From contig CALRBF010000002.1 in assembly GCA_943354045.1 (NCBI GenBank), positions 1-58,725 on the forward strand: a stretch of 58,725 nucleotides of DNA, written 5' to 3'. The DNA is from Parcubacteria group bacterium (GTDB lineage: Bacteria; Patescibacteriota; Minisyncoccia; SW-4-49-11). A program made the position numbers and the translations under genes. The notes under the pieces are model-generated. The model searched no databases. It was not told the origin of the DNA and saw nothing but the letters and a program-made list of their open reading frames with translations. This document shows, piece by piece, positions 231-38,236 of the stretch; the stretch's first letter is position 1; every line of letters starts with the position of its first letter.

Positions 231-249
231 AAATCCCATTTGCGACGGG
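231..249. repeat. Isolated module of the mosaic repeat family (AAATCCCATTTGCGACGGG)
   Basis: The same 19-mer occurs at 17595-17613 inside mosaic locus R5. Confidence 0.5.
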
Positions 250-12594: not shown

Positions 12595-12615
12595 TTTTAT
12601 TAGTTAGAAATTTAT

Positions 12616-12777
12616 GTCCTCCTTTCTACCTACGGTTTACTTGCCGCAGGTAGGTAGATAAATGGAGGCGGTGGTCCCTCCTATACTTTTGTTTAGGAGG
12701 GACCGGAGGTGGATAGAGTTTAAGTTGGTATTTTATCCACCCCCACCGCAAGCGGTCACCCCCTCCGAAGGGGGACA
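12616..12777 (+). repeat. Mosaic hairpin-module repeat locus R1
   Basis: Modules: CTACCTAC-GGTTTACTTGCCGCAG-GTAGGTAG; GTCCCTCCTATACTTTTGTTTAGGAGGGAC; GAGGTGGAT; TTATCCACCCCC; CCCCCTCCGAAGGGGG. Confidence 0.85.
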
Positions 12778-12855
12778 AAATAATAACCCTTAATGTATAA
12801 TGTGTATTTATAAATCATCAACACATGTTATAATAAACGTATATTTAATAACCCT

Positions 12856-13821
12856 ATGCAATCATTTTGGCAATCATTACCTAAACCATTTTTTGTATTA
12901 GCTCCGATGGAGGAGGTAACTGATACAGTTTTTCGGCGTATTATTAGCTCTTGTGGACGTCCTGATGTGATGGTGACAGAATTTACCAGCGTAGAGGGAC
13001 TCGCCTCTGAAATTGGAAGATCCAAAGTTATACATCGATTACAATATACTCCAGAGGAACAGCCCTTAGTAGCCCAAATTTGGGGCATTACACCAGAGCA
13101 TTATTATCAGGCGGGAGTTTATGCCAGAGAACAAGGTTTTGCTGGCCTAGATATCAATATGGGCTGCCCAGTCAAAAAAGTAATCAAACAAGGAGCTTGT
13201 TCCGCACTTATCAAAAATCCCCAATTAGCCTCAGATATTATACAAGCAGCCAAAGAGGGAGCAGGCGATATACCAGTTAGTGTTAAAACTCGTATTGGTT
13301 TTAGTGAAATTCAAACAGAGGAATGGATTGGACATCTCTTACAATCTCATCTAGACGCCCTCACCATACATGGCCGTACCGTAAAAGAATTATCCGATTA
13401 TCCTGCTCATTGGGATGAAATCGGAAAAGCAGTAAACCTAAGGGATAAGATAAATCCCCATACTCTCATTATTGGGAATGGAGATATTCTATCTTATCAG
13501 CAGGGACTTGATATCGCCACTCAATATGGTGTAGATGGGATAATGATTGGAAGAGGAGTATTCCATAATCCTTGGATATTCAATCCCAATATAGACCATA
13601 ATACACTCAGTATAGAGATAAAGGTGCAAAAACTCATCGAGCATATACAACTTTTTGACCAAACTTGGGGACAAGAGAAAAATTTTGCCGTGATGAAAAA
13701 ATGCTTCAAAATGTATCTCAATAATTTTCCAGGAGCCAGCGATATCCGCTCTAAGCTTATGCAATGTAATACAGCTGAGGAATGTATTAAAATTTTGAGG
13801 ATTATAATAGACAAAATATAA
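12856..13821 (+). CDS. dus: tRNA-dihydrouridine synthase
   Basis: FVLAPMEEVTDTVFRRI, catalytic-region NMGCPVKKV..GACSAL. 321 aa. Confidence 0.9.
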   Translation: MQSFWQSLPKPFFVLAPMEEVTDTVFRRIISSCGRPDVMVTEFTSVEGLASEIGRSKVIHRLQYTPEEQPLVAQIWGITPEHYYQAGVYAREQGFAGLDINMGCPVKKVIKQGACSALIKNPQLASDIIQAAKEGAGDIPVSVKTRIGFSEIQTEEWIGHLLQSHLDALTIHGRTVKELSDYPAHWDEIGKAVNLRDKINPHTLIIGNGDILSYQQGLDIATQYGVDGIMIGRGVFHNPWIFNPNIDHNTLSIEIKVQKLIEHIQLFDQTWGQEKNFAVMKKCFKMYLNNFPGASDIRSKLMQCNTAEECIKILRIIIDKI

Positions 13822-13861
13822 TTTTTATGGTATATACAATAAGCCTCTATATTTTCAGACA

Positions 13862-14266
13862 ATGATCTCCTCAACTCAGGTTCAAAGCATTATTTATCTT
13901 CGAGAGAAATTCTCTCAATTAATCATTCCTCACCCCTCTATAAGATCAGAATCTTTTGATCACAATGAGTTCTTCGGAATTATTCTAAATGGATTAGATG
14001 AATTATTACAATATATAACATTAATAGTAAATTTGAGAAAGTATATTGAAAATGAAGATATTAATGAGGATGTAGATAATATCATCACAACTCTGAATGA
14101 GTTATACGATAATTATCAGCAAGAAAAGGATAGTAATTCATTTGACATTGTAAAATTCAGTCGTAATAATGTAAGGAAGATGTCTCATCTACCCGATAAG
14201 ATTGAAAAAGTTTATAAAATTTTATTAGCAAGAGCTCAATTAGATATTATCAATGTTCTGACATAG
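13862..14266 (+). CDS. Hypothetical protein (island cassette)
   Basis: 134 aa ORF. It is preceded by a duplicated 31 bp promoter-like block and followed by a T-module terminator. Confidence 0.45.
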   Translation: MISSTQVQSIIYLREKFSQLIIPHPSIRSESFDHNEFFGIILNGLDELLQYITLIVNLRKYIENEDINEDVDNIITTLNELYDNYQQEKDSNSFDIVKFSRNNVRKMSHLPDKIEKVYKILLARAQLDIINVLT

Positions 14267-14274
14267 CCTGCCCC

Positions 14275-14299
14275 AAGCCACCCCAATAGGTGGCTTTTT
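14275..14299 (+). terminator. T-module terminator (AAGCCACC-loop-GGTGGCTTTTT)
   Basis: 8 bp stem plus a T run. Related copies are at 16936-16966, 17391-17420 and 18059-18087. Confidence 0.7.
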
Positions 14300-14301
14300 A
14301 A

Positions 14302-14418
14302 ATTCCCCTCTCTCCCTACGGTTTACCTACCGCAGGAAGGGAGATAAATTGAGGGCTTTCAGTCCCTCCCATACTTTAGTTTGGGAGGGGGTGCCGTCTT
14401 TTAGACGGTGGGGTGGAT
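14302..14418 (+). repeat. Mosaic hairpin-module repeat locus R2
   Basis: TCTCCCT-ACGGTTTACCTACCGCAGGA-AGGGAGA; GTCCCTCCCATACTTTAGTTTGGGAGGG; GGTGCCGTCTTTTAGACGGTGGGGTGGAT. Confidence 0.85.
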
Positions 14419-14537
14419 GTGTTCGGATCCCAATTCAACCTCAAATATGCTATAATACAAACATATAAATAAATATAAACTTATCCACTATGGAAAATAA
14501 TAATTCACTATTCTTTAATTATATTCTATAATAAAAC
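14414..14537 (+). promoter_or_regulatory. Leader module copy A: extended -10 promoter plus 13-codon uORF MENNNSLFFNYIL
   Basis: TGc-TATAAT at 14448-14456; uORF 14490-14531. About 95% identical to 18156-18280, and its first roughly 90 bp match 15753-15840. Confidence 0.65.
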
Positions 14538-14555
14538 CATATACTCAATCAAAAT

Positions 14556-15563
14556 ATGAAAAATATAACTCAATATCAAAATCTTGCACAGCATATATCC
14601 AAAATTCTTGAACAAAGAAGAAAAGAAGCCTTAAACAGTCTTAATACAATACTTTTACAAACTTATTGGGAAATAGGAAAAGCCATTGTGGAATTCGAAC
14701 AAGAAGGGAAGGTTAAAGCAGAATATGGCAAAGAATTACTAATTTCACTTTCCAAAGAACTTAAAAAGTATGGAAAAGGTTTTAGTAGAACCAACCTTCA
14801 ATATATGAGACTCTTTTATCTGTCTTTTCCCAAAATACCAGACGCGTCTGGCAAATTGACATGGAGTCATTATGTGGAAATTTTGGGAGTCTCTAATAAT
14901 CTTGCCCGCAACTTTTATGAAAAACAATGTATACTAGAAAACTAGTCAGTAAGAGAGCTCAAAAGACAAAAACAATCAATGTTATTCGAGAGATTTGCTC
15001 TAGGTAAGGATAAAAAGGAATTATTAAAACTGTCACACAAAGGACAAATAATCCAAAAAGCAGAAGATATTATCAAAGAGCCATATATTTTAGAGTTTTT
15101 AGGTATACCGGAACCTTATAATTTTTCAGAAGCAGAACTAGAACAAAAAATTATTGATAATTTACAAATGTTTTTGTTGGAATTAGGAAAGGGATTCACT
15201 TTTGTCAAAAGACAATTCCGTCTAAGTTTTGACAGTCGACATCATTATATAGATTTGGTATTTTATCATCGTATCCTGAAATGTTTTATACTAATTGACC
15301 TCAAAATTGGAGAAGCCGATCATACAGATATTGGGCAGATGAATATGTATTTAAACTATTTCAAAACCGAAGAAAATACACAAGGGGATAATGAGCCAAT
15401 AGGCATAATTTTAAGTGCAGCAAAAAATGATATTAAAATGGAATATGCAATGGGAGGAATAAGTAATCAAATGTTTGTATCCCAATATCAACTATATTTG
15501 CCAAAACCAGAAGAATTAGAAGCTGAAATAGAAAAATTCCTACCCCATACTGAAAATAATTAG
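14556..15563 (+). pseudogene. YhcG/DUF1016-family PD-(D/E)xK nuclease with an in-frame TAG
   Basis: ORFs 14556-14945 and 14979-15563 are in the same frame. TAG 14943-14945 sits where the family has Trp (..ILEN[W]SVRELKRQ..SMLFERFAL). C-terminal ID..DLK nuclease core. Confidence 0.75.
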
Positions 15564-15580
15564 ATCTAAATTGAGCAAAA

Positions 15581-15757
15581 TTCCCCTCTCCACCTACGGT
15601 TTACCTACCGCAGGCAGGTCGATAAATTGAGGGCTGTAAGTCCCTCCCATACTTTAGTTTGGGAGGGGGTGGTAGTCTTTTAGACGGTGGGGTGGAAGTA
15701 CTTGTCTCAATTTTTCTGTCCCCCTTTGGTGGGGGTGCCTGAAAGGTGGGGGTGGAT
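15581..15757 (+). repeat. Mosaic hairpin-module repeat locus R3
   Basis: Same module order as R2, plus GTCCCCCTTTGGTGGGGG and GGTGCCTGAAAGGTGGGGGTGGAT. Confidence 0.85.
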
Positions 15758-15820
15758 GTGTTCGGATCCCAATTCAACCTCAAATATGCTATAATATAAA
15801 TAAATATAAACTTATCCACT
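15753..15820 (+). promoter_or_regulatory. Leader module copy B (promoter of the Bro-N gene)
   Basis: Same block as copies A and C with an 8 bp deletion. TGc-TATAAT at 15787-15795. The shared ATGGAAAATAATAATTCACT is the real gene start here. Confidence 0.65.
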
Positions 15821-16669
15821 ATGGAAAATAATAATTCACTTGCTATTTTTGAGACATATAAAATTCGTCGACATTTTAATCAAGATACAGAGACCTGGTA
15901 CTTTTCTATAATAGATATAATAGCAGTATTAACAGAACAGCAAAATTTCAAAAAAGCTCAAAGCTACTGGACTACATTCAAAAACAGATTAAAAAAAGAG
16001 GGAAGTGAGTTTGTCACAAAATGTGACAAACTGAAATTAGAATCAGCAGATGGAAAATTTTATAAAACCGATGTAGCAGATGTAGAGACAATCTTGCGAC
16101 TGATTCAATCAATTCCAAGTAAAAAAGCCGAGCCAATAAAACTGTGGTTAGCCAAAGTTGGATATGAGCGAATGGAAGAAATGACCGATCCAGAAAAAGC
16201 TCTGAATAGGTCTAGAGAATATTGGCAAAAACAAGGAAGAAGCCAAAAATGGATACAACAGAGAATGACAGGTCAAGAAACAAAAAATAAATTAACCGAC
16301 TACTGGGCTCAAAATGGTGTATCAAGTGGGGCAGAATTTGCAATACTCACCAATATTATACATCAAGAATGGAGTGATATCTCTATAACCCAACATAAGA
16401 AGTTAAAAAACTTAAAGACACAAAATCTAAGAGACCATATGAGTGAAGAAGAGCTAATATTTACAGCATTAGCAGAACTATCCACAAGAAAAATTGCCGA
16501 GACAGAACAAACACAAGGACTGGAAGAAAATAAAATCCCAGCAATAAAAGGAGGTAAAATTGCTAAAGATGCAAGAAAAGCATTAGAAGAAAAAACAGGA
16601 AAATCCGTAATAACTGGAGAAAATTATTTAGTAGATAATAAAACATCTTTAATTGATAAAAAGAAATAA
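15821..16669 (+). CDS. Bro-N domain protein (phage antirepressor-like)
   Basis: N-terminus ..LAIFETYKIRRHFNQDTETWYFSIIDIIAVLTE.. is typical of Bro-N. 282 aa. Confidence 0.65.
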   Translation: MENNNSLAIFETYKIRRHFNQDTETWYFSIIDIIAVLTEQQNFKKAQSYWTTFKNRLKKEGSEFVTKCDKLKLESADGKFYKTDVADVETILRLIQSIPSKKAEPIKLWLAKVGYERMEEMTDPEKALNRSREYWQKQGRSQKWIQQRMTGQETKNKLTDYWAQNGVSSGAEFAILTNIIHQEWSDISITQHKKLKNLKTQNLRDHMSEEELIFTALAELSTRKIAETEQTQGLEENKIPAIKGGKIAKDARKALEEKTGKSVITGENYLVDNKTSLIDKKK

Positions 16670-16678
16670 ACTTTAACT

Positions 16679-16968
16679 TCCCATCTCTCCCTACGGTTTA
16701 CTTACCGCAGGCATGGAGATAAATCGAGGCTTTCGTCCCTCCTATACTTTATTTTGGGAGGTGGGTGGCAGGCTTTGCCTGACGGGGTGAAAGTGTTTTG
16801 CAACTTGTATTTTTGTCCTCCTTCGGAGGAGCTTTAAGTCCCTCCTATATTTATTTAGGAGGGGGTGCCCGCAGGGCGGAGGTGGACATTGTTTTCTTAC
16901 AATTCCAAATTGACTACTCTTCCCCACACCCCCCTAAGCCACCCTCCCAGAGAGTGGCTTTTTTGATT
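16679..16968 (+). repeat. Mosaic hairpin-module repeat locus R4 (ends in a T module)
   Basis: Contains the P, L, S, GTCCTCCTTCGGAGGAG, second L, GGTGCCCGCAGGGCGGAGGTGGAC and AAGCCACCCTCCCAGAGAGTGGCTTTTTT modules. Confidence 0.85.
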
Positions 16969-16971
16969 AGA

Positions 16972-17003
16972 AAAAAAGCTCGAGTTTTATACCCGAGCTC
17001 ATT
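16972..17003 (-). terminator. Rho-independent terminator of the 17020-17304 gene
   Basis: On the minus strand: AGCTCG-loop-CGAGCT followed by TTTTTTT. Confidence 0.6.
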
Positions 17004-17019
17004 TACTCAAAATGATACT

Positions 17020-17304
17020 TTATTTTATATAATGATACTCTATGATATCCCCGGTTCTATCTCTTCGTTTTGGAAATCTCACATGATTAGTTTGTCCATC
17101 TATTGTGATGATATCATTGTCTCTACAATCTTTTAGAAGATTATTTTTTGTATAATCTAAATATTCTTTTGTCTCTGGGTGCTCTGCTAAAAGATGTATC
17201 AACTGAGCTTTACTTATTGTTTTGCTACTCTTTCTAGTAGACATAATAGTTGCCCCTATCAACCACACAACAGACTTGTGTGTGATAGCCGTTTTTGGAT
17301 CCAT
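17020..17304 (-). CDS. Hypothetical small protein (possible start at ATG 17244)
   Basis: 94 aa ORF. The internal ATG has an AGGGG SD-like box. A CACACAA/TTGTGTG hairpin lies in the N-terminal extension. Confidence 0.4.
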   Translation of the reverse strand: MDPKTAITHKSVVWLIGATIMSTRKSSKTISKAQLIHLLAEHPETKEYLDYTKNNLLKDCRDNDIITIDGQTNHVRFPKRRDRTGDIIEYHYIK

Positions 17305-17385
17305 GGAATGATTTGGAGATAACCTTGGTAATTATATATAATTTTTCCAATAATATCAAATACATATAACATAAAAATATAATTT

Positions 17386-17625
17386 TCCCCCTAAGACACC
17401 CTCCCAGAGAGTGGCTTTTTAAATCCCCCTCTTTTGTAATACTCCTCACTTTCGTAGGGGCGACCTTTCAGTCGCCTGGATTTGTTTGACTCTCTCCTTT
17501 GAACTTCTGTCCTCCCTTGGTGGAGCTTTCAGTCCCTCCCATACTTTAGTTTGGGAGGGGGTGACACCTACGGTGACGGCGGAGGATTAGGAGTAAATCC
17601 CATTTGCGACGGGGGAGGTGGATTT
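17386..17625 (+). repeat. Mosaic hairpin-module repeat locus R5
   Basis: T module, TTCGTAGGGGCGACCTTTCAGTCGCC, GTCCTCCCTTGGTGGAG, L module, GGTGACACCTACGGTGACGG, AAATCCCATTTGCGACGGGGGAGGTGGAT. Confidence 0.85.
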
Positions 17626-17723
17626 CGTAATCTCAAAAGTAGTCAGTGAATGTAGACAAAATATAATTTTTATGATATATACAATGTGCACATTTCACTC
17701 CGCTTCGAGCGGAAGTATGGATC

Positions 17724-18041
17724 ATGTTTCATTTTTCAAACCCTTTCGTAAGGAATAAGAAAAAAATAACATACAGTATTGTCTTATGGCAACATTGTTA
17801 TGAGGAGATCTTAAGAATTCTTCAACAAAAAGTATTCACCGAAAATTCTCGATATATACTCCGACTAGCAACAATATTAGCTCTGATAGATAGAGCCATA
17901 GATATCAAGAGTATTTCAGATCCCAGTCGGGATCTATTCGAAAATAGGACAATAACATTTTCCAATGAAATGTCTCTTATAATCGATGATGTTCTTCCCC
18001 GTAATGGCGAGGAAGAGGAAAATGAAGAAGATGAACAATAG
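17724..18041 (+). CDS. Hypothetical protein with an acidic tail (island cassette)
   Basis: 105 aa ORF. Preceded by the duplicated 31 bp block (17655-17685) and followed by a T-module terminator. Confidence 0.4.
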   Translation: MFHFSNPFVRNKKKITYSIVLWQHCYEEILRILQQKVFTENSRYILRLATILALIDRAIDIKSISDPSRDLFENRTITFSNEMSLIIDDVLPRNGEEEENEEDEQ

Positions 18042-18058
18042 CCCTCTACCACCTCCCC

Positions 18059-18087
18059 AAAGCCACCCTCCCAGAGAGTGGCTTTTT
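18059..18087 (+). terminator. T-module terminator
   Basis: AGCCAC-CCTCCCAGAGA-GTGGCT followed by TTTTT. Confidence 0.7.
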
Positions 18088-18160
18088 AAATTCCCCTCTC
18101 CACCTACGGTTTACCTACCGCAGGTAGGTAGGCAGGGAGGGGGTGCCTGACGGGGTGGAT
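18088..18160 (+). repeat. Mosaic hairpin-module repeat locus R6
   Basis: AATTCCCCTCTCCACCTACGGTTTACCTACCGCAGGTAGGT... GGTGCCTGACGGGGTGGAT. Confidence 0.85.
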
Positions 18161-18280
18161 GTGTTCGGCTCCCAATTCAACCTCAAATATGCTATAATAC
18201 AAACATATAAATAAATATAAACTTATCCACTATGGAAAATAATAATTCACTATTCTTTAGTTATATTCTATAATAAAACT
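18156..18280 (+). promoter_or_regulatory. Leader module copy C: promoter plus uORF MENNNSLFFSYIL
   Basis: TGc-TATAAT at 18190-18198; uORF 18232-18273. Near-identical to copy A. Confidence 0.65.
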
Positions 18281-18297
18281 ATACATTAAATTAAAAT

Positions 18298-19163
18298 ATG
18301 AAAAATGAAATTATTTTATATAGACCAGATGATTTAGATGAGCATATAGAAGTAATGCTTAAACACGAAACTGTTTGGTTAAACAGACAGCAAATGGCTT
18401 CGCTTTTTGGTAGAGATGTGAAAACTCTTGGTAAACACATCAATAATGTTTTTTCGGAAGGAGAACTAGATAATATAGCAACTGTCGCAAAATTTGCGAC
18501 AGTTCAAAATGAAGGAGGCAGAAAGGTTGAGCGCCAAGTGGAGTATTACAATCTAGATGTTATAATATCAGTAGGGTACCGAGTAAAATCAAAACAAGGT
18601 ACACAATTTCGCATCTGGGCAACCAATATTTTACGAGACTATTTACTCAAAGGCTATGCACTGAATAATAGAATGAACAGAATAGAAGATAATATTCAAT
18701 CTTTGAGTGAAAAAGTAAATCAAATAGATTTACAAATACATACCAATACCATCCCAACCCAACCCAAGGAGTATTCTTTGAAGGACAAGTATTCGATGCC
18801 TATGAATTATTCTCAAAAATAATTCGCAAAGCCAAAAGTCATATAATCCTGATAGACAACTACATAGACGAGACCACCCTCATACATTTATCCAAAAAGA
18901 ACCCAAAAGTAAAAGCCCTCATATTAACCCATCCAATAAGCCAAGAATTAGAGCTAGATATACAGAAAGTCAATCAGCAATATGGAAACTTCAAAATAAA
19001 GAAATTTAATAAAAGCCATGATAGATTCCTCATCATAGATCAAAAAGAAATCTATCATCTCGGAGCCTCACTCAAAGATTTAGGCAAAAAACTCTTCGCC
19101 TTCAGTCTATTAGACACAAGTTCAGTACAAGATTTATTGAATAGAGTAAAAGATTTAGAGTGA
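18298..19163 (+). pseudogene. RhuM-family protein, frameshifted at a (CCCAA)3 tract
   Basis: N-terminal part ..VEYYNLDVIISVGYRVKSKQGTQFRIWATNILRDYLLKGY. The C-terminal part GVFFEGQVFDAYELFSKIIRKAKSHIILIDNYIDE...KDLE* is open in another frame up to TGA 19161-19163. Confidence 0.75.
18753..18767. repeat. Pentanucleotide tandem repeat (CCCAA)x3 at the RhuM frameshift point
   Basis: Three perfect units. Two units (or five) would put both halves of the gene in one frame (..IPTQGVFFEG..). Confidence 0.85.
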
Positions 19164-19171
19164 GTGTATTA

Positions 19172-19455
19172 TTGTCCTCTAATTCTTTCGTAGAGTCGGC
19201 GACCCCGCCGACATAGTTTTTTGTAGGGGCGACCTGTCAGTCGCCTGTATTTGGTGTTAAAAATCCCCCTCTCCACCTACGGTCGATAAATTGAGGAGTG
19301 GACAGCTTCGCTGGACGGGGTGGAAATGTTTTGCAAGGTGAGTTTCTGTCCTCCCTTGGGGGAGGTGTCACCGTAGGTGACGGAGGAGGACATAATTCAT
19401 AATTTGCAATTTATCCCCCTACCCAATTTATCGACCGTAGGTGGAAACCTCCACA
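19172..19455 (+). repeat. Mosaic repeat locus R7, including a unit bounded by 21 bp perfect inverted repeats
   Basis: TCGTAGAGTCGGCGACCCCGCCGAC; TGTAGGGGCGACCTGTCAGTCGCC. CCACCTACGGTCGATAAATTG (19273-19293) is the perfect reverse complement of 19424-19444. Confidence 0.85.
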
Positions 19456-22503: not shown

Positions 22504-23730
22504 ATGGCTGATACTACCTCATCTATACCAACAAAAAATTCCCCTCTTGAGGGGTGTCAGATGAAATCTGACGGGGTGGATTATCTTCCAAGCGATTGGG
22601 TAGAGACGACTTTGGGGGAGGTTGTAGAAACAGTAATTGATAATCGCGGAAAAAATCCAAGTTATTATACTGAAAAAGGTATTCCTGTAATTGATAATGT
22701 TTTAATAAAAGAAAATAGAAGAATTGATTTGAAAGAAGCTAGAAGATTTATAGATGATAATTTATATAATAATTTTATCCGTAAACACGGGGAAAGTAGT
22801 GATGTAATAATTACTTTAGTTGGTAATGGGTACGGGAATATTGCTTTATTTCCTAATGAAAAAAGTGTAATTATTCAAAATACAGTTGGATTAAGAGTAA
22901 ATAAAAAATCAGATAATTTGTTTTTGTATTATTTACTAAAAAAAGATAAGAAAAAAATATTAGATCTAAATATTGGTGCGGCACAGCCAAGTGTAAAAGT
23001 TGGAGATTTATTAAATATTAAATTTCTTCTCCCCCCTCTCCCTGAACAAAAAGCAATAGCCTCAATACTTAGTGCATTTGATGATAAGATTGAGCTATTG
23101 AGAGAGCAAAACAAAACCTTAGAAGAGATGGGACAGACAATATTCAAAGAATGGTTTGGGAAATATGGAGTAGATGATGAGCTACCCGAAGGGTGGAAAG
23201 TTGGGAAGTTGGGGGAAGAGTTAGTAATTAAACAAGGTAAATATCTTGAAGCAGAAAATTTATCAGAAGCTCCAACAGAAGAAAAAAAATATCCCATTTA
23301 TGGTGGTAGTGGTATTCGTGGTTATATAGAAGATTTTATGTATGAAAAACCTATGGTATTTTTGACTTGTAGAGGAAATGGCTGTGGTTTAATTCAGTTT
23401 TCAAAGGAACAATCAAGTATTACAAATTCTTGTATGGCTTTTGAAAATATAGATTCGCCATTAAGTTCAGAGTTTATTTATTTTTTATCAAAGAAAATTG
23501 ATTTTGAAAGTGTTACTTCTGGTTCAGCACAACCTCAAATTACAGTTACAAATTTGTATAATTTAGAAATAATTATTCCAGATCAAGAAACTTTGAAACA
23601 ATTTGACGAAGAAATAAAACCAATTTTTATAAAAATCAGAGACAATTCAGAACAAATCCAATCCCTCGCTCGTAGTCGTAATGAGTTGTTACCAAAGTTG
23701 ATGAGTGGAGCGGTGAGGGTTGAGTTTTAG
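22504..23730 (+). CDS. hsdS: Type I R-M specificity subunit
   Basis: Two target-recognition halves separated by LPPLPEQKAIASIL..DDKIELLREQNKTLEEMGQTIFKEWF, with a C-terminal ..LLPKLMSG. A possible alternative start is ATG 22561, because codons 12-26 are a repeat module. Confidence 0.88.
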   Translation: MADTTSSIPTKNSPLEGCQMKSDGVDYLPSDWVETTLGEVVETVIDNRGKNPSYYTEKGIPVIDNVLIKENRRIDLKEARRFIDDNLYNNFIRKHGESSDVIITLVGNGYGNIALFPNEKSVIIQNTVGLRVNKKSDNLFLYYLLKKDKKKILDLNIGAAQPSVKVGDLLNIKFLLPPLPEQKAIASILSAFDDKIELLREQNKTLEEMGQTIFKEWFGKYGVDDELPEGWKVGKLGEELVIKQGKYLEAENLSEAPTEEKKYPIYGGSGIRGYIEDFMYEKPMVFLTCRGNGCGLIQFSKEQSSITNSCMAFENIDSPLSSEFIYFLSKKIDFESVTSGSAQPQITVTNLYNLEIIIPDQETLKQFDEEIKPIFIKIRDNSEQIQSLARSRNELLPKLMSGAVRVEF

Positions 23731-28500: not shown

Positions 28501-28651
28501 TTGGGAGAAGAGAGAGGATGTCAGAGCTAAACTTCGTCTTACGGTCAAAAAAATTCTAATCAGGTACGGGTATCCACCTGATCTCGCAAGAATAGAAGCT
28601 GATAAAGTTCTTGAGCAAAGTGAATTATTGGCTAAGGAGTTAACTCAATAA
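25532..28651 (+). CDS. hsdR: Type I restriction endonuclease subunit R
   Basis: N-terminal nuclease region (..DVVIFVNGLPLVVVELK), helicase motif I HTQGSGKS, DEAH box VVADEAHRSQ, QAIARVNR. 1039 aa. Confidence 0.93.
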   Translation: MTTLNESHIEQTLIDILVAQGYQYFYGPDIAPYSANPQRENFDSVILENHLKESLKRLNPDIPESARHEAYQHIMNLGSSDFMANNEKFHNYLTDGITVEYFKDEAIKGINVKLLDLENIANNSFWVVNQFVVKEQNNEKRLDVVIFVNGLPLVVVELKNATDEKATLERAFMQIQNYQKAIPSIFYYNALCIISDGIEAKVSSVSAPFSRYLAWKSPEKEENNIPEMQIMAEKMLDKEVLLRLIRYNTVFEQEEQKDEKTGLLSVVKIKKIAAYHQYYAVEKAVKETVRATDESEGNRKIGVIWHTQGSGKSLSMVFYTGQIVVEPVMKNPTVVILTDRNDLDDQLFTTFGNCKQLLRQTPVQAENREHLKELLKVSGGGIVFTTIQKFAPTSGNVYEMLSERSNIVVVADEAHRSQYGFKGREVEIEDGSEIRYGNAKYLRDALPKASFIGFTGTPIEKEDRSTRNVFGDEIDIYDIKQAVDDGATVPISYESRLVKIRLNQEVASQIDYAVDEIVGATQEQKEKAKKKNAQIDAIVGHPDRLKDIAKDIVEHFEARQQTFEGKAMVVCMTRQIAVNLYREIITLRPEWHSDELMQGMIKIVMTSSSDDPESFQSHHTTKEDRKKLALRLKDINDSLQMVIVQSMWLTGFDVPCLNTMYIDKKMQGANLMQAIARVNRVYRDKPGGLIVDYIGIGQDLRNAMGVYTQSGGQGKAILDISEVIAGMKTKFEIVEQMFHGFDYKQYFQVENKEKLQILLGASNFILRDDKLKNRFLAEITALSQLFAMAVPSFESEQIRDEVAFFQAIKARINKFTPSGGVSDRQVETAVRQIVDEALASDGVVDVFEAAGIQTPTLDILSEEFLLEVKNMEQKNIAFELLRKLINDEVKVRKTKSIAQGKKFSEMLERVIKKYHNNQIDTAQVIQELSQIAREMKLEDSKAEELGLSPEEYAFYSVLAQNDSTRFLQDDKMKELIHVIVEIIRKNATVDWEKREDVRAKLRLTVKKILIRYGYPPDLARIEADKVLEQSELLAKELTQ

Positions 28652-28667
28652 AGATAAATAATCACCT

Positions 28668-28907
28668 ATGAAACTCTTCCGCTACCGTAAACCATCGCTC
28701 AAAACATTACTTGGAGTGACAAAAGTAAAGCGTAGGATAAAGAAGGCTACAGGGATTTCTGCAGTGCAATCTCTCAGTCCTTCTCGAGTTAAGCAAAAAA
28801 TCAAATACAATATAGGGTATAATAAACCTATTTTCAAACATACCAGAGAACTGAGCAAGGGCAAAGTCCCGAGTCTGTTGGGCTGGTTTTCAAAATTGTT
28901 TAAGTAA
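28668..28907 (+). CDS. Small very basic protein (79 aa), last gene of the R-M transcription unit
   Basis: ORF starts 16 nt after hsdR. Its last 120 nt (28788-28907) are duplicated at 30084-30203. Confidence 0.45.
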   Translation: MKLFRYRKPSLKTLLGVTKVKRRIKKATGISAVQSLSPSRVKQKIKYNIGYNKPIFKHTRELSKGKVPSLLGWFSKLFK

Positions 28908-28918
28908 GAAAACTACCT

Positions 28919-29032
28919 ATGTCAACAAAACAAGATGCAATTAAATTTACAAAAAAAAATCTCGTTAAACAGCTAATCACGAAACTATTTTCGAGCAAAT
29001 GCTCCTCGCAACAGAGAATTATACCGTTCTAA
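28919..29032 (+). CDS. 37-aa peptide gene (X1), the only intact member of a thrice-repeated unit
   Basis: MSTKQDAIKFTKKNLVKQLITKLFSSKCSSQQRIIPF*. Copies X2 and X3 differ mostly at third codon positions but lack start codons. Confidence 0.35.
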   Translation: MSTKQDAIKFTKKNLVKQLITKLFSSKCSSQQRIIPF

Positions 29033-29125
29033 AAGGGGGGTATGAGCATAGTTGCTTTTAAAGATTTTGAAGCAGTTTTTGCGGTAAATTAAGCAAATGG
29101 TATATGGTCAATTTGTTTTATAAGA

Positions 29126-29154
29126 TTGACAAAATTAATAAAATGTGCTATAAG
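29126..29154 (+). promoter_or_regulatory. Promoter of cassette a
   Basis: TTGACA-AAATTAATAAAATGTGC-TATAAG. Member of the TTGACAAAAT..AAATGTGCTAT promoter-module family. Confidence 0.7.
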
Positions 29155-29179
29155 AAGATTGTCTATCTTTTGCACCTTT

Positions 29180-29545
29180 ATGTTTTCTCAAAAGATCAAG
29201 GAAGAGCTTCGCAAGCTCAAACATGATCGGGTTTTGATGCTCGGAGCAATTCAACGCTTGGAGCTTCTTCTTGAAGGCCCTGATCCTGTTTTGGACTCAG
29301 AGGCCTATAAGAGGTATGGTGACGAGCTTGATCATCTGGAGGATGATATGGAGAAATCCCTCCGAGTGGATTCGAAGCGCGCCTTTGAGGGAGCGTTTCG
29401 AAAGATTCAGTCTGGTATGGATGATGAGTATCTCTATCGGATTCTCGCCGAGCAAGCACGAACCATTCTCCGACATCAACGTCGGAAATCTTTGAGGAAG
29501 AATCAAAGATTTCCTCTTCGTACATTGTTGGGGATAATCTTTTAA
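29180..29545 (+). CDS. Hypothetical helical, charged protein (cassette a, GC-rich)
   Basis: ATG 29180 is downstream of the promoter (the ORF-track TTG 29126 is the -35 box). About 50% GC. Confidence 0.5.
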   Translation: MFSQKIKEELRKLKHDRVLMLGAIQRLELLLEGPDPVLDSEAYKRYGDELDHLEDDMEKSLRVDSKRAFEGAFRKIQSGMDDEYLYRILAEQARTILRHQRRKSLRKNQRFPLRTLLGIIF

Positions 29546-29563
29546 ACCTCTTTGAGGATATTA

Positions 29564-29596
29564 ATCCATGGAGCTTAATGCTCTATGGATTTTTTT
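29564..29596 (+). terminator. Rho-independent terminator
   Basis: ATCCATGGAGC-TTAAT-GCTCTATGGAT followed by TTTTTT. Confidence 0.7.
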
Positions 29597-29610
29597 ATAG
29601 GATTTGAAAT

Positions 29611-29634
29611 AAAAAAGCCCCGATGAGTCGGGGC
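29611..29634 (-). terminator. Rho-independent terminator of cassette b
   Basis: GCCCCGA-TGAG-TCGGGGC with an A6 run on the plus strand (a T run on the minus strand). Confidence 0.7.
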
Positions 29635-29662
29635 TTGGGGGAGTGATGAGGAAAGAAGTTGT

Positions 29663-30010
29663 CTATTGCCTCCAATTGATCACCGTTCTGGTGGAGCTGG
29701 TGGGGCCAAAACGAATGCCCCATACATCTAGGGAGATCTTTGTTCCTTTGGGAAGGGCAGAGATAGCTCCATAGGTGTCAGAACTCCTGAAATGTCCTGT
29801 CAGCAAGTCATCCTTGATATCGAATGTCTCCTGTTCACAGAACAGTCTGTAGGCGTTTCCTGTCCCAGTGCGGACATTTTCCGCCTTGATCACCGTGCAG
29901 GGAACTCCTGCGAAATAGGTGGTCGGTCGCAATGTCCCTACCACGAGGGCGATAGCTCCCACTACAATGAAAGTTAGAATTAGGTTAGAGTTGTTGTCTG
30001 AGTTGGACAT
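29663..30010 (-). CDS. Hypothetical N-terminally membrane-anchored protein (cassette b, GC-rich), ends ..VINWRQ*
   Basis: 115 aa with a TM helix at residues 10-30. Has its own promoter and terminator. Confidence 0.5.
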   Translation of the reverse strand: MSNSDNNSNLILTFIVVGAIALVVGTLRPTTYFAGVPCTVIKAENVRTGTGNAYRLFCEQETFDIKDDLLTGHFRSSDTYGAISALPKGTKISLDVWGIRFGPTSSTRTVINWRQ

Positions 30011-30036
30011 TTGGAAGAAAGATCAATTTCGATGAA

Positions 30037-30065
30037 AATGATAGCACATTTCCCTAATTTTGTCA
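30037..30065 (-). promoter_or_regulatory. Promoter of cassette b
   Basis: Minus strand: TTGACA-AAATTAGGGAAATGTGC-TATCAT. Confidence 0.7.
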
Positions 30066-30083
30066 ATGGTAGATAACTAATGT

Positions 30084-30203
30084 GGTTAAGCAAAAAATCA
30101 AATACAATATAGGCTATAATAAACCTATTTTCAAACATACCAGAGAACTGAGCAAGGGCAAAATCCCAAGTTTATTCGGCTGGTTTTCAAAATTGTTTAA
30201 ATA
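30084..30203 (+). repeat. D2: duplicate of the 3' 120 nt of the small basic protein gene
   Basis: About 92% identical to 28788-28907. Encodes ..KQKIKYNIGYNKPIFKHTRELSKGKIPSLFGWFSKLFK*. Confidence 0.8.
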
Positions 30204-30231
30204 AAAAAAATCCCCCGGCGAGGTGTCGGGG
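30202..30231 (-). terminator. Rho-independent terminator of cassette c
   Basis: CCCCCG-9 nt-CGGGGG with an A8 run on the plus strand. Confidence 0.6.
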
Positions 30232-30259
30232 GAGAGGGGGATTAGAAACACTCATCTGT

Positions 30260-30316
30260 TTACTGTCTCCAATTGATTGCAGATCGTTTGGTGCTTTTCT
30301 TTCTTGACTTTGCCAT
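30260..30316 (-). CDS. 18-aa mini-ORF MAKSRKKSTKRSAINWRQ* (probable remnant of a cassette-b paralog)
   Basis: Its last codons and nucleotide sequence match the 3' end of the 29663-30010 gene (..INWRQ*). Confidence 0.25.
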   Translation of the reverse strand: MAKSRKKSTKRSAINWRQ

Positions 30317-30326
30317 CCTAGATTAT

Positions 30327-30593
30327 TTAGAATGGCCAGTCTTGATTCTTACTCTCCTCCCAAGTATAGAGACGGCTACCAGTTTTGGTGTAAACCAGAC
30401 CATTACCTGCAAAGAATAACACATCACCAGTTCGTCGGTTAACACCATACGAGCATGTATCGAGCAGTCGCTGGAGAGCTTGATCGATTGTTTCATTATT
30501 CCTGCAATTTGCGGCCGCAATTTCCCTTAGTGAGTAAAGGGTAGAATCATCAATATATCGTTGAATTCCACTGACGGTGATTAAAGTGGACAT
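30327..30593 (-). CDS. Hypothetical 88-aa protein (cassette c, GC-rich)
   Basis: ATG 30593 lies downstream of the promoter. The ORF-track start 30629 overlaps the predicted start of transcription. Confidence 0.5.
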   Translation of the reverse strand: MSTLITVSGIQRYIDDSTLYSLREIAAANCRNNETIDQALQRLLDTCSYGVNRRTGDVLFFAGNGLVYTKTGSRLYTWEESKNQDWPF

Positions 30594-30617
30594 GATGTAG
30601 GGGCAATTTGCTAAGAC

Positions 30618-30646
30618 AACATAGCACATTTTGCTAATTTTGTCAA
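30618..30646 (-). promoter_or_regulatory. Promoter of cassette c
   Basis: Minus strand: TTGACA-AAATTAGCAAAATGTGC-TATGTT. Confidence 0.7.
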
Positions 30647-30686
30647 TAGTATATGACTAAAAATTTCTTATATCAAAAAATAAAGT

Positions 30687-30787
30687 CCAATTAAATTCAC
30701 TCAAAGCCTGGTTAAGCGGCTGGTCACGAAACTATTTTCGAGCAAATGCTCCTCGCTACAGAGAATTATACCGTTCTAAAAGGGGGG
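30687..30787 (+). repeat. X2: second copy of the X unit (no start codon)
   Basis: Core CGAAACTATTTTCGAGCAAATGCTCCTCGCTACAGAGAATTATACCGTTCTAAAAG is near-identical to 28979-29034. Confidence 0.8.
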
Positions 30788-30829
30788 CATTTATTGATTA
30801 ATAGATATTGGGTTTGATATAATGTATTT

Positions 30830-31039
30830 ATGAAAGAATATATTATATTTTTAGATGAATCTGGAGATCATAACTTAGTAAAGTATGATATTCAATATCC
30901 TATTTTTACTTTGGTAGGGTGTATTTTTGAAAAAGTATATTATGAGGAGCAAGTTATTGCTAAAGTAAATAAGCTTAAAATTAATCATTTTAATAATAAA
31001 AATACCATATTACATTCTTATGTCCTTTTTCTATATTAA
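30830..31039 (+). pseudogene. DUF3800-family gene fragment (N-terminal 69 aa only)
   Basis: MKEYIIFLDESGDHN.. is the DUF3800 N-terminal motif. The ORF stops far short of the family's usual length. Confidence 0.5.
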
Positions 31040-31375
31040 AGTCAAAATTTAGACGTAAGGGGAATAGAGTGAAAGGATATGGATATAAATAATTTCCGTA
31101 ATAAAAATGAGTGGCCCAGGTATTCCTAGTCCACTCATTTGTAACCTTATAGTAACATAATATTTGCTATTTGTCAAGTATACGATAGGTATGAGTTTGA
31201 TTAAAAAGCAATATGTAAAAAATGCATATTGCAAATGTGGATAAGCTAGAGAAGATTCAGTTGTTGCATTTTTTGCAATAGCTCAAAAAGAAGGTTGGGG
31301 ATATAATGTCATTAAAAAGTGGTTAGTGCAAAATTTGCACAGACCATTTTCCACAAAGCTTTCAAATGTAATAGG

Positions 31376-31461
31376 CAAATACAAAGCCTCGTCAAGGGGC
31401 TGACCGCGAAACTATTTTCGAGCGAATGCTCCTCGCAACAGAGAATTATACCGTTCTAAAA
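31376..31461 (+). repeat. X3: third copy of the X unit (remnant)
   Basis: ..QSLVKGLTAKLFSSECSSQQRIIPF* with no start codon. Core at 31407-31462. Confidence 0.8.
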
Positions 31462-31545
31462 GAGTTTTAAAATACTACTATCTTCACGAATTATATTATG
31501 ATATCTATGATTATGGTGTTATGATATATACATATATAAAATATT

Positions 31546-32466
31546 ATGAGTGAAGTTGCGATTGATACCAAAAAATTAGATAGAAGTAAGACTATTCTGA
31601 AATGGATGGGAATTATGATATCTGGAATTGGTTGGTTGGGTATATGGGGTGTGACTCCTTTCTATCTTTGGATATATGCCAATGGGCTTGGTCAATATTT
31701 TCTTGAGGTGATTATATCGGATATGATATTGACTCTTATCTTATCGAGTATTTTTGTTGTATTAGGGAATCGTATACGAGTTGGGGTTGATCGTAGTATA
31801 AGGATGTATCTACAGGTATTGATTATATTGATGGGTATTATATCCTTAGGGTTTATTATTTTTGAAAATACAATTAGTATTACGAGTTGGGTATATATTG
31901 GTGTGCTCGTATTCCTTATATGTTCTTGGGTTGTTTTGAGTCAGATATTGAGGAATAAGGACTTTGTAGCAACATTACATAAGCCTGTATATAAGTATTT
32001 TGATACGAAGGGGTGGATTATCTTTTTCTTGATTGCTTTTGGTATATTATCGGTAACTTTTTATATTGATTGGATTGCATTAGATGATGAGATGTATTGG
32101 GACTCATTGTCAGAAGAGGAGTATAGTGAAGAGACAGATAATAAGCTTGCTGCTATGGTGTCAATATTAAATGATAGACCTTTTCCGAGTAAATTGAATG
32201 ATAATATTACTCTGTTAGGAATTAAGGAGCAGCAATCTGGTTCTATTCAATATACATATGAAATACAAAATATAGATTCTAGTCAATTATCTACAGAATT
32301 CCTTAAGGATTTGATGGTTAAAGAGTACTGTAATAATGAATTTGTTAATTATATTTTAGACCAAGAGATAGATATTGCGCATTCATTTACAACGGAGAAA
32401 GGTGAGAATTATTTTGTCACTCTTGATTTTAGTAGTTGTGAATCTTCCTTGTTTAATATTCTATAA
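31546..32466 (+). CDS. Hypothetical polytopic membrane protein with a soluble C-terminal domain
   Basis: Five to six TM helices followed by an acidic region. 306 aa. Confidence 0.5.
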   Translation: MSEVAIDTKKLDRSKTILKWMGIMISGIGWLGIWGVTPFYLWIYANGLGQYFLEVIISDMILTLILSSIFVVLGNRIRVGVDRSIRMYLQVLIILMGIISLGFIIFENTISITSWVYIGVLVFLICSWVVLSQILRNKDFVATLHKPVYKYFDTKGWIIFFLIAFGILSVTFYIDWIALDDEMYWDSLSEEEYSEETDNKLAAMVSILNDRPFPSKLNDNITLLGIKEQQSGSIQYTYEIQNIDSSQLSTEFLKDLMVKEYCNNEFVNYILDQEIDIAHSFTTEKGENYFVTLDFSSCESSLFNIL

Positions 32467-32518: not shown

Positions 32519-32718
32519 ATTCCACCCCTTAATCAAAGATACCACCCCCTCCCAAACTAAAGTATGGGAGGGACTGAAAGCCCTCGATTTATCGACCTGC
32601 CTGCGGTAGGTAAACCGTAGGTGGAGAGGGGAATTAGCTCAATCCACCTCTGGCACTCCGTGCCACCCCCTCCTAAATAAATATAGGAGGGACTTAAAGC
32701 TCCTCTAAAGGAGGACAA
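32519..32718 (-). repeat. Mosaic hairpin-module repeat locus R8 (inverted orientation)
   Basis: Reverse complements of the S, L and P modules, then ATCCACCTCTGGCACTCCGTGCCACC, L, and CTCCTCTAAAGGAGGAC. Confidence 0.85.
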
Positions 32719-32810
32719 AACACAAAACTCTCCGCTATGAATTTATATTATAAATTAGGCTATTATTATGGTATAATGTTATAAATATATATCTCCTGTT
32801 TAGAAATACT

Positions 32811-33288: not shown

Positions 33289-33530
33289 GGGGAATTTTTG
33301 CTCAGTCCTCCTCCGGCACTTCGTGCCACCCCCTCCTAAATAAATATAGGAGGGACTTAAAGCTCCTCTAAAGGAGGACAGAAAACTAGATACAGGCGAC
33401 TAAGAGGTCGCCCCTACGAAAAATAATGTCGGCGGGGTCGCCGACTCTACGAAATAATGGAGGGACGAAAGTCCTACGAACACAGAATCCAATCCACCCC
33501 GTCCAAAGGAGGACAGAATACCCCTACCTC
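33289..33530 (-). repeat. Mosaic hairpin-module repeat locus R9 (inverted orientation)
   Basis: Shares CCGGCACTTCGTGCCACC, L and CTCCTCTAAAGGAGGAC with R8. Also carries reverse complements of the TTCGTAG-type modules of R5 and R7. Confidence 0.85.
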
Positions 33531-37053: not shown

Positions 37054-37059
37054 TGTTGG

Positions 37060-38210: not shown

Positions 38211-38236
38211 AAGGGGATATCTGTTCGAGTGGGTGT

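Follow-up and report, generated by a model that had tools for sequence, protein, structure and literature searches.

The whalefall-1 RNA (RF01762) was described from 16 copies in a marine whale-fall metagenome, its organism being unknown (Weinberg et al. 2010, PMC2864571). Its seed alignment contains a GUCCCUCC-UUGG-GGAGGGAC hairpin and a covarying second hairpin; most copies stand as inverted pairs on one contig, and one copy is flanked by a AAAAAAUUCCUCUAG...CUAGAGG hairpin. By definition, the GTAG-tagged repetitive extragenic palindromes (REPs) are palindromic units of ~20–40 bp that carry, at one end, an unpaired GTAG tag (Di Nocera et al. 2013, PMC3733652). Here, we analyzed a stretch of 58,725 nucleotides from a Parcubacteria group bacterium (GenBank assembly GCA_943354045.1, contig CALRBF010000002.1, positions 1 to 58,725), hereafter the window, which carries a family of GC-rich hairpin repeats built on a ~45-nt unit of two hairpins and a purine-rich tail. 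The family is apparently undescribed, resembling REPs and bacterial interspersed mosaic elements (BIMEs) and having a whalefall-1-like core. We regard it as an even bet that these loci are lineage-amplified, non-autonomous, REP/BIME-like hairpin repeats of freshwater Paceibacteria, within the Candidate Phyla Radiation (CPR), reshuffled by slippage and conversion. Full-text literature searches found no description of REP-like repeats in Patescibacteria/CPR, and to our knowledge no REPs have been reported from CPR bacteria.

The repeat family is real and recurs far above chance. In the window, the loop of the hairpin module P (CTACGGTTTACYTRCCGCAGG) occurs 7 times and the L hairpin 6 times, with 0 expected by chance for each, and the motif GGGGTGGA occurs 16 times versus 0.85 ± 0.88 expected. 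The same families were recovered by a repeat finder, among them the L segments at 14355 and 17525, which are 39 nt long and 100% identical to each other. More than 15 independent assemblies (ENA, JGI, NCBI, and Logan; loci L001, L002–L005, and L006–L022) contain the same structures, which are therefore not an assembly artefact. A first-pass annotation, made from the letters of the window, had proposed a multi-copy, REP/BIME-like mosaic of GC-rich hairpin modules, and this description holds: all of the loci it listed contain modules as transcribed there, both orientations occur, and Tandem Repeats Finder detected no periodic array in the loci, in keeping with the irregular spacing it reported. 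The AT-rich background is also as described, since the window has 35% GC and the listed loci form islands of 50–56%. Summed over the coordinates of that annotation, the repeat loci amount to ~2.3 kb, which is ~4% of the 58.7-kb window and ~20% of the region from 12.6 to 19.5 kb.

A single layout was read from 54 distinct contexts ending in the junction motif (window plus 22 loci). An AT-rich lead (TTYT or AAATT) is followed by hairpin 1, (G)TG, hairpin 2, and a purine tail, G(G/A)GGTGGA(T/A/C). Hairpin 1 has a C-rich 5' arm and a G-rich 3' arm (GTCCYCC-TNGG-GGRGGRG, or CCCCT-CTTG-AGGGG, which is module E of the first-pass annotation), and its loops are UNGG-type tetraloops. Hairpin 2 consists of a 3–7 bp stem of essentially any sequence and a loop of 3–6 nt, mostly a C-GNA-G triloop (GAA, GGA, GCA, or GTA) or TTT; one common hairpin 2 has a CTTG loop. 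The tail varies as GGAGGAGGA, GGGGTGAA, and GGGATGGA, and the unit ends read AATTCCCC / TGTCC and GGGGTGGAT / GGACA. The motif had been taken for a junction joining separate modules. It is recurrent, but it is really the purine tail that ends the two-hairpin unit: module S is hairpin 2 plus this tail, and a single unit comprises E (or the GTCCYCC hairpin), S, and GGGGTGGA.

The unit is elaborated by nesting (P), substitution (L), and tandem chaining. P is not free-standing; it is nested in the loop of hairpin 1, and E is the empty form of that hairpin. At the site upstream of dus, the dihydrouridine synthase gene, P is lacking in L006, L016, and L021 (TGTCCTCC-TTT-GGAGGAGG), and that loop holds the 38-nt P core (CTACCTACGG...GGTAGGTAG-ATAAAT) in the window and L005, with no duplication. 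A second host of P reads CCCCTC-(P)-TGAGGG, versus CCCCTCTTGAGGGG when empty, and upstream of rpoB (57398), the window and L016 alike have a shorter P-like hairpin nested the other way round. The compensatory change reported for the outer stem of P is correct (TCTACC/GGTAGA versus TCTCCC/GGGAGA) but modest, as a single pair covaries, and a third variant, TCCACC/GGTCGA, pairs imperfectly. The stem of L (GTCCCTCC/GGAGGGAC) is of the hairpin-1 type and carries a long AT loop; L precedes or replaces hairpin 2. Q modules combine a (T)TTCGTAG head with palindromes of differing sequence and stand in tandem pairs or triplets: Q1 is (T)TTCGTAG plus GGGCGACC-N5-GTCGCC, Q2 is TTCGTAG plus AGTCGGCG-ACCC-CGCCGAC, and other GTAG hairpins have other stems. 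We estimate ~8 Q modules and ~19 units in the window. Module T, which had been counted in the novel family, does not belong there, as a hairpin with a T-run right after a stop codon is an ordinary terminator. Inverted pairs of units are arranged tail-to-tail (12708–12741 and 57440–57473) or head-to-head (48368–48494 and 57466–57593), and most chains (14.3–19.4 kb) run head-to-tail.

The proposal that hairpin pairing is under constraint was borne out, with the strongest covariation found in hairpin 2 and hairpin 1 of the unit and not in P. A perfect stem of at least 4 bp lies upstream of the tail in 50% of 72 distinct 21-mers, versus 10.8% of shuffles, and 41 different stems are represented. 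Alignment of 19 units with MAFFT and RNAalifold misaligned hairpin 2 and recovered hairpin 1 only; it was replaced by a covariance model with a hand-defined structure, for which six gapless units were used, including three from phage contigs. This model gave 58 matches at E ≤ 1 in 302 kb (window and loci) and 0 within the loci of more distant relatives. In the model-fitted alignment, 95.7% of cells are paired and 10 of the 11 pairs show compensatory double changes. Double-change cells number 93, versus 25 ± 6.5 in shuffles (0/500 shuffles reach 93), and the covariation score is 0.399, versus at most 0.098 in slid-partner controls. Among non-Watson-Crick cells, G·T or T·G (23) outnumber A·C or C·A (5), which indicates that pairing is kept on the G-tail strand only, as RNA or single-stranded DNA. 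Predicted DNA folds of the loci have z values from −2.5 to −9.4. Of 64 distinct tail contexts, 48 lie between tandem genes, 4 between convergent and 6 between divergent genes, and 6 inside open reading frames (ORFs); where the flanking genes are co-directional, the G-tail strand is sense in 37 distinct contexts and antisense in 11.

At Rfam gathering thresholds, only 5 tRNAs were detected in the window, so that by this criterion the modules are not members of a catalogued Rfam family. A permissive scan of the whole window lost weak matches, and only short-range scans showed whalefall-1, at 24.8 bits (12735–12778 and L011), 22.7 bits (L002), and 19 bits (19346–19391); these scores lie below the RF01762 gathering threshold of 37, and the units are not RF01762 members by it. 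Whalefall-1 is the only Rfam family matched by the units. They share with it the two hairpins followed by a Shine-Dalgarno-like purine-rich tail (published description, PMC2864571, and seed alignment), a UNGG loop in hairpin 1 (GUCCCUCC/GGAGGGAC-like), a free, covarying hairpin 2, and inverted pairs. They differ from it in hairpin 2 (9 bp there, 3–7 bp in the units) and in the tail (AGGGUGAGGAC there, GGGGTGGA(T) or GGAGGAGGAC in the units), and whalefall-1 has not been described in nested or chained mosaics. The earlier view that the sequences are unrecognized thus stands as far as Rfam gathering thresholds go, but not for the architecture, as the unit is laid out like whalefall-1 RNA and Q fits the GTAG-tagged REPs.

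Indeed, Q modules come under the definition of GTAG-tagged REPs, unlike the two-hairpin units, and the extragenic placement of that class, mostly 3' of ORFs between co-directional or convergent genes (PMC3733652), recurs here (48/64 tandem, 4 convergent). More broadly, the family resembles REPs and BIMEs in having a variable stem beside a conserved unpaired tag (TTCGTAG plus palindrome in Q, hairpin plus tail in the units), several families per genome, mosaics, and inverted doublets that fold into long hairpins. It differs in that chains are mostly head-to-tail instead of alternating in orientation, hairpins are nested in hairpin loops, the host is a small-genome CPR bacterium, and no REP-associated tyrosine transposase (RAYT) was found in the window or the fetched loci. 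No sequence similarity to catalogued REPs is known to us. Yeast mitochondrial GC clusters and other repetitive hairpins of organelles (e.g., PMC2800124) are likewise GC-rich hairpins of several classes that invade AT-rich intergenic DNA, at times within or beside one another; this is an analogy only, as they belong to organelle genomes and their sequences are unrelated.

The host lineage is a freshwater one. The window is matched by ENA lake assemblies GROS21-1, and close homologs of its dihydrouridine synthase (Dus; 85–95% identity) come from freshwater metagenomes, those that are named being Minisyncoccia or Parcubacteria. In a scan of public collections, the P core was found in only one species-representative genome, a Candidatus Paceibacteria metagenome-assembled genome (MAG; locus L001), and in four stretches of public metagenomes (L002–L005). 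Relatives with Dus at least 85% identical carry 2.4–10 tails per 10 kb, and no tails were found in the loci of relatives with Dus 63–68% identical (17–21 kb each). P and L look clade-specific.

The two-hairpin unit reaches beyond the clade. In a viral collection, the P core had no match, and the A-type hairpin and the whalefall-1 consensus had 0 matches each. A generic pattern of hairpin 2 plus tail matched 51 times; 48 of these matches lack complementarity and are attributed to chance, and the other 3, versus ~0.2 expected by chance, have a fully complementary hairpin 2 and all possess hairpin 1 as well. These phage-contig units (L026:228–274 and 896–942, L027:7810–7856, and L046:10690–10736) contain GCGAAGC-type mini-hairpins. 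L026 and L027 are phage contigs of 48–49% GC with P22-like portal genes, to which the unit is antisense, and L026 has two unit copies plus a TTTCGTAG hairpin. In the third contig, L046 (50% GC, same viral collection), the unit, which is sense-oriented, follows a stop codon and precedes an ATG, and its GGAGGTG is the Shine-Dalgarno sequence of the downstream membrane-protein gene.

Within the window, housekeeping genes identified by Pfam (rpoB/C, secA, RNase Y, HU, truB, ksgA, and dus) surround an accessory block. In the relative L014, the DEAD-box helicase gene found at 33.6 kb in the window directly follows dus, and the window region 13.8–33.6 kb (~20 kb) is therefore a strain-variable island; it is missing in L015 also, and its gene content is different in every other relative examined (L004, L006, L016, L018, and L021). 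The island cassettes are small ORFs with split DUF1016/YhcG nuclease, Bro-N, RhuM, and T5orf172 domains, together with a type I restriction-modification (R-M) system (hsdM 20159, hsdS 22504, Ymh 23746, PIN 24498, and hsdR 25532) in which a Bro-N gene is wedged between hsdM and hsdS. Most repeat loci are situated at the borders of these cassettes or between them; the cassettes are bounded by T modules or units, and the chain at 33289–33530 is the right edge of the island. The others occupy core spacers, namely upstream of dus, after the HU gene, near a recombinase gene, between tRNAs, and upstream of rpoB.

When syntenic loci were compared automatically, two clean module-sized indels emerged. 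In the first, a 38-nt L hairpin (the 12674–12701 site) is present in the window, between GGCGGTG and GGAGGTG, and not in L005. In the second, a complete 69-nt unit is present in L006, between two copies of GGGGTGGATGT, and not in the near-identical L007. The direct repeats at both indels are the unit's own G-rich motif, and the segment GGRGGTG recurs on both sides of each hairpin. Hairpin 2 upstream of dus has four alleles (none, GGCAC-GGA-GTGCC, GGTAC-GAA-GTACC, and L), of which the two small hairpins are also present at other loci. A cassette encoding a 94-aa protein is common to the window (16936–17433) and L018, with 87% identity and T modules on both sides. Between-strain homology breaks in differing modules (T, units, or promoter/leader) and not at one position. 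This polymorphism fits slippage and gene conversion between recurrent G-rich segments. An apparent 393-nt deletion in L079 was rejected as a polymorphism, being a scaffold N gap: at ~6160–6260 of L079 (window 57230–57780), the gap falls exactly in place of the repeat-rich spacer. Since the repeats break metagenome assemblies, their abundance in MAGs is probably underestimated.

These observations can be accommodated by the REP-like model as follows. An enzyme acting in trans on single-stranded DNA, RAYT/HUH-like or other and encoded at another place in the genome, would multiply the units, and hairpins would be inserted into single-stranded loops or junctions with no target duplication, preferentially on the lagging-strand template, which is the sense strand for co-oriented genes. 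Replication slippage and gene conversion between paralogous units, via GGRGGTG, would then delete, swap, and chain modules, giving the mosaic. In transcripts, the hairpin chains may act as 3'-end barriers that protect them, and in DNA, the repeats could be portable homology aiding cassette exchange in the adjacent defence island. The presence or absence of P in the hairpin-1 loop without duplication supports this model, as does the empty dus/helicase junction of L014, which has no repeat unit. The best sign of insertion, albeit an indirect one, is that P is found nested in either orientation and within different host hairpins.

Several points weigh against it. Deletion or gene conversion alone can explain every observed indel, so none of them demonstrates de novo insertion. 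No RAYT/Y1 or other transposase was found among the ~53 window ORFs and small unannotated ORFs (Pfam and NCBIfam; no Y1_Tnp match), in agreement with the first-pass annotation, or among the genes called in ~270 kb of the relatives' loci; an exact look-up of one protein from the left end of the window had no match. Q2 and Q1 stand in direct tandem and not as the inverted dimers of REPINs. Because the covariation alignment was fitted to the model, its pairing counts are somewhat inflated; the independent stem test on the 72 distinct 21-mers agrees with the model-fitted figures. Finally, the unit is found in three phage contigs (48–50% GC), in one of which the tail serves as a Shine-Dalgarno sequence, and these phage copies, along with the architecture of an Rfam motif, point to a conserved role as RNA rather than to DNA that is purely selfish. 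It should be noted that the two readings are not mutually exclusive, as is accepted for REPs.

A possible, if rather unlikely, alternative is that the units, as members of a whalefall-1-like superfamily, function primarily as RNA elements in transcripts, their multiplicity reflecting duplication of a useful cis-element and not transposition. Possible roles include 3'-untranslated or intercistronic stabilizers against exonucleases, STAB-SD-like ribosome-binding or Shine-Dalgarno-presenting modules, and small RNAs. This explanation would account for the repeated sub-threshold RF01762 matches with the same layout, UNGG loops in hairpin 1, and some CUUG loops in hairpin 2, as well as for the strand-specific pairing, the sense-strand bias, and the fact that chains begin 9–16 nt 3' of stop codons. 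Its best support is the retention of the unit in distant phage contigs and the L046 tail placed as a Shine-Dalgarno sequence, to which the GAGGGG 6 nt before an ATG in the hsdS-start unit (22535–22582) can be added. However, about one-quarter of the units are antisense to both neighbors, as the phage units are to the portal gene in L026 and L027, and island units often lie between a T terminator and the next promoter, where they may be poorly transcribed. Presence/absence variation, nesting, and chaining are also atypical of cis-regulatory RNA. In addition, the C-GNA-G triloops preferred by hairpin 2 are unusually stable as mini-hairpins in DNA rather than RNA.

It is improbable that the units are folded single-strand recombination sites, similar to attC, the CTX-phage attP, or the Neisseria dRS3, through which a site-specific recombinase captures or exchanges cassettes and at which unit-bearing phages would integrate. 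The location of units at the edges of and between cassettes, in an island whose content differs in every strain examined, is compatible with this idea, as are the folding of a single strand, the occurrence of units in phage contigs, and a tyrosine recombinase gene beside the unit at 39.8 kb. As in integron attC sites, the units are found at cassette 3' ends, their folding is specific to one strand, and structure is kept while sequence is free next to a fixed flanking motif. Yet this enzyme, the sole tyrosine recombinase of the window (38586–39626), is best described as XerC/XerD (171 and 168 bits), scoring 87 bits with the integron-integrase model TIGR02249 versus a cutoff of 265; its gene lies among housekeeping genes, 6 kb from the right island edge, and does not adjoin the array. 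Strain breakpoints are scattered over modules with no fixed position, units also occupy core sites without a cassette (tRNA and rpoB spacers), and direct-repeat slippage explains both indels. No attC core sites, R'' (RYYYAAC) and R' (GTTRRRY) around an imperfect palindrome, were identified in the units, although no dedicated GTTRRRY scan was made. An integron was therefore rejected, as the recombinase is XerC/D-like and not IntI and the junctions are not fixed.

The Neisseria intergenic mosaic elements (NIMEs), RS units flanked by dRS3, offer a parallel: they form mosaic intergenic arrays with a small conserved inverted-repeat motif, strain-variable cassettes or minimal mobile elements, and phage integration at the repeats. 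The dRS3 is, however, a fixed 20-bp palindrome, the sequences and hosts are unrelated, and we saw no integrating phage or IS110-type enzyme here. We give equally little credence to a broader version of the recombination-site reading, in which the units are folded single-strand DNA sites for a recombinase or HUH enzyme that both multiplies them and exchanges defence cassettes in CPR bacteria and phages. If true, it would represent an integron-like cassette system without IntI and provide the first organismal context and function for the orphan whalefall-1 motif.

We consider it very unlikely that GGGGTGGA and its hairpins are a protein-recognition signal, such as a DNA-uptake sequence, a motif like Chi or KOPS (FtsK-orienting polar sequences), or a nucleoid-protein or gyrase site as proposed for BIMEs. 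The 8-mer is ~19-fold over-represented, it is mainly in + orientation left of ~39 kb, the point at which the cumulative GC skew has its peak and genes change strand, and CPR bacteria generally depend on DNA uptake. However, unlike Chi, KOPS, or Haemophilus-type uptake sequences, the motif is nearly confined to the units and absent from most coding DNA, the tail is variable, and hairpin covariation and nesting are left unexplained. Finally, guide-RNA arrays (CRISPR-like, or tandem interspersed guide RNA (TIGR)-like, the latter having 36-nt tigRNA units and Nop-domain Tas proteins, including stem-loop arrays with variable palindromes, and occurring in phages and parasitic bacteria, PMC12045711) and assembly artefacts, to which the N gap of L079 might point, can practically be dismissed, as there is no period (Tandem Repeats Finder), no Nop-domain or Cas protein in the window, variable parts that are self-complementary stems and not spacers, and recurrence in more than 15 independent assemblies. 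Miniature inverted-repeat transposable elements were also considered and rejected, given P insertions without target duplication, no insertion sequence in the window, and unit ends that pair weakly (TGTCC/GGACA).

The individual loci illustrate this grammar. An isolated fragment of a further segment, X (AAATCCCATTTGCGACGG), was recognized by sequence at 231–248 (+). Upstream of dus, a GTCCTCC-type unit (12612–12715, +) holds the P core (12626–12663) in the loop of hairpin 1, L (12674–12701) in place of hairpin 2, and the tail GGAGGTGGA. It stands tail-to-tail with a second unit (12734–12780, −), which scores 41.7 bits with the covariance model and has the best whalefall-1 score, and the palindromic core common to both, GGTGGATA-N18-TATCCACC (12708–12741), has the same arrangement at 57440–57473. 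At the left of the island, a terminator scan placed a T-type intrinsic terminator (AAGCCACC-loop-GGTGGCTT plus TTTTT; 14275–14300, +) 9 nt past the stop of ORF 13862–14266. Immediately after it lies a composite unit (14301–14418, +) made of hairpin 1 CCCCTC/GAGGG, the P core (14312–14349), L (14362–14389), hairpin 2 CCGTCT-TTT-AGACGG, and the tail GGGGTGGA, with a DNA fold of −24.2 kcal/mol (z = −3.9).

A promoter/leader segment of 38–155 nt, TGCTATAAT then ATGGAAAATAATAATTCAC, is located 3' of three chains. It is not itself a hairpin module but travels with the repeats; the copy at 14419–14564 (+) recurs at 15758 and 18161, so that the same promoter and leader precede three different genes (14419–14564, 15758–15830, and 18161–18306). 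Two of the three leaders consist of a 13-codon mini-ORF, a relic Bro-N start, with a second promoter after it. This sharing suggests gene replacement downstream of a fixed 5' module. Between the copies, the region 14556–15563 has an in-frame TAG separating DUF1016_N from YhcG_C and is a probable pseudogene or truncated gene.

The chain at 15579–15757 (+; 42.9 bits) comprises a composite unit (P 15590–15627, L 15640–15667, a decayed hairpin 2, and a tail at 15689), a linker, and a GTCCCCC-type unit (15714–15758). At 16679–16968 (+), P (16687–16724) and L (16735–16762) are followed by a CAGGC-TTT-GCCTG hairpin with the tail GGGGTGAA, a unit (16811–16888) with a short-loop L (16838–16863), and T (16936–16963). 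The next chain (17386–17625, +) contains T (17393–17420), a Q1 GTAG-tagged palindrome (17454–17476), a unit (17505–17588) with L (17532–17559), the X segment GGATTAGGAGTAAATCCCATTTGCGACGG (17584–17612), and the tail GAGGTGGA. Between these two chains, the conserved 94-aa ORF (17020–17304, −) is read from the other strand, has a strong promoter and a terminator to itself, and is without a family match. At 18060–18160 (+), T (18060–18087) precedes a hairpin 1 enclosing a P core (18100–18132) with a perfect 8-bp stem (TACCTACC-GCA-GGTAGGTA), a truncated hairpin 2, and the tail GGGGTGGA. The last chain of this series (19172–19455, +) has Q2 (19190–19212) and Q1 (19223–19245) in tandem, a hairpin with its tail at 19317, and the best-scoring unit (19344–19392; 58 bits, whalefall-1 19 bits); an internally deleted P (19273–19295, +) and its inverted copy (19422–19444, −) flank the last two.

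The simplest unit (22535–22582, +) reads AATTCCCCT-CTTG-AGGGG, TG, GTCAGAT-GAA-ATCTGAC, and GGGGTGGAT. The fragment at 22537–22581 had been listed as intergenic, which is incorrect, as it overlaps the 5' end of the hsdS ORF: the unit covers part of the first 26 codons from the 22504 start, in frame and over 15 codons. An internal hsdS ATG at 22565 lies in the hairpin-2 loop, with GAGGGG 6 nt before it, at Shine-Dalgarno distance, and judging from this arrangement of the sequence, the repeat unit may supply the hsdS translation start.

On the other side of the island, a reverse chain (32519–32720, −; 49.6 bits) has a tail, L (32547–32574), P (32592–32629), and a unit (32641–32720) with a short-loop L (32668–32693). 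It is followed by the right-edge chain (33289–33530, −; 53.7 bits), with a unit (33304–33383), Q1 (33395–33417), Q2 (33428–33450), a third GTAG hairpin (~33460–33482), and a truncated unit (33486–33518). A fragment 3' of the HU-gene terminator (37049–37090, +) is a weak match (13.8 bits) in which a TTCGTAG head is fused to the tail GGAGGAGGACA. Upstream of the XerC/D-like recombinase gene, a composite unit (39771–39856, −) contains P (39813–39845) with a perfect inner stem (CCTACGG/CCGTAGG) and hairpin 2 GTCTGC-N6-GCAGAC. The recombinase itself is ~40 aa longer than XerC models, and its gene adjoins a GC-rich stretch at 38.1–38.6 kb whose ORFs have no family match. The same area (~38000–40100) holds the peak of the cumulative GC skew and the switch of gene orientation from + to −, and it may be the replication terminus.

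Two arrangements with units on both strands complete the set. Between tRNA-Gly and tRNA-Trp, a head-to-head doublet (48368–48494) combines a unit with an L-like hairpin (48370–48433, −) and a second unit (48451–48492, +). Its predicted DNA fold is a single long hairpin like that of a REPIN (−38 kcal/mol, z = −9.4); a decayed Q follows up to ~48527, and the doublet has a 78% identical copy at 57463–57570. Upstream of rpoB, the cluster at 57382–57625 (both strands) starts with a unit (57384–57447, +) enclosing the nested short P-like hairpin (57398–57417), which is orthologous in L016. A unit (57466–57525, −) stands tail-to-tail with it, followed by another unit (57546–57593, +) and Q1 (57597–57619, −). 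Next to this cluster, at 57640–57820, a second copy of the tRNA-Arg 3' end (GAACCCCTGCGGGAGCACAGAT) lies ~175 nt from the first, and the two are separated by a GC-rich segment with no Rfam match; this could be an integration scar or an unrecognized small RNA.

Further features lie elsewhere in the window. The 2.9 kb at 28650–31550 are almost devoid of ORFs and have repeat families of their own that bear no relation to the hairpin modules: 88-nt copies at 28956, 30703, and 31383 (83–90% identical), and 130-nt copies at 28788 and 30085, with no Rfam match. A promoter-like repeat of 30–40 nt occurs at 30041, 30621, and 38545. A beta-lactamase-fold gene (354–1399) is split into two ORFs and is a probable pseudogene or truncated gene. 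The RhuM-family ORFs match only the first 69 (18298–18822) and 78 (32811–33278) of 252 profile positions and are likewise probable pseudogenes or truncated genes.

The genomes of CPR/Patescibacteria are ~1 Mb in size, streamlined, and thought to hold little repetitive DNA, and the density of repeats seen here prompts one to ask how genomes this small tolerate selfish or structural DNA, or make use of it. In practical terms, the repeats break metagenome assemblies exactly at these islands. Through this family, a motif previously seen only in a 2005-era whale-fall metagenome is linked to identifiable organisms and phages, so that its function becomes testable. The repeats also mark the joints of a hypervariable type I R-M/accessory island and may explain how cassettes are swapped between strains.

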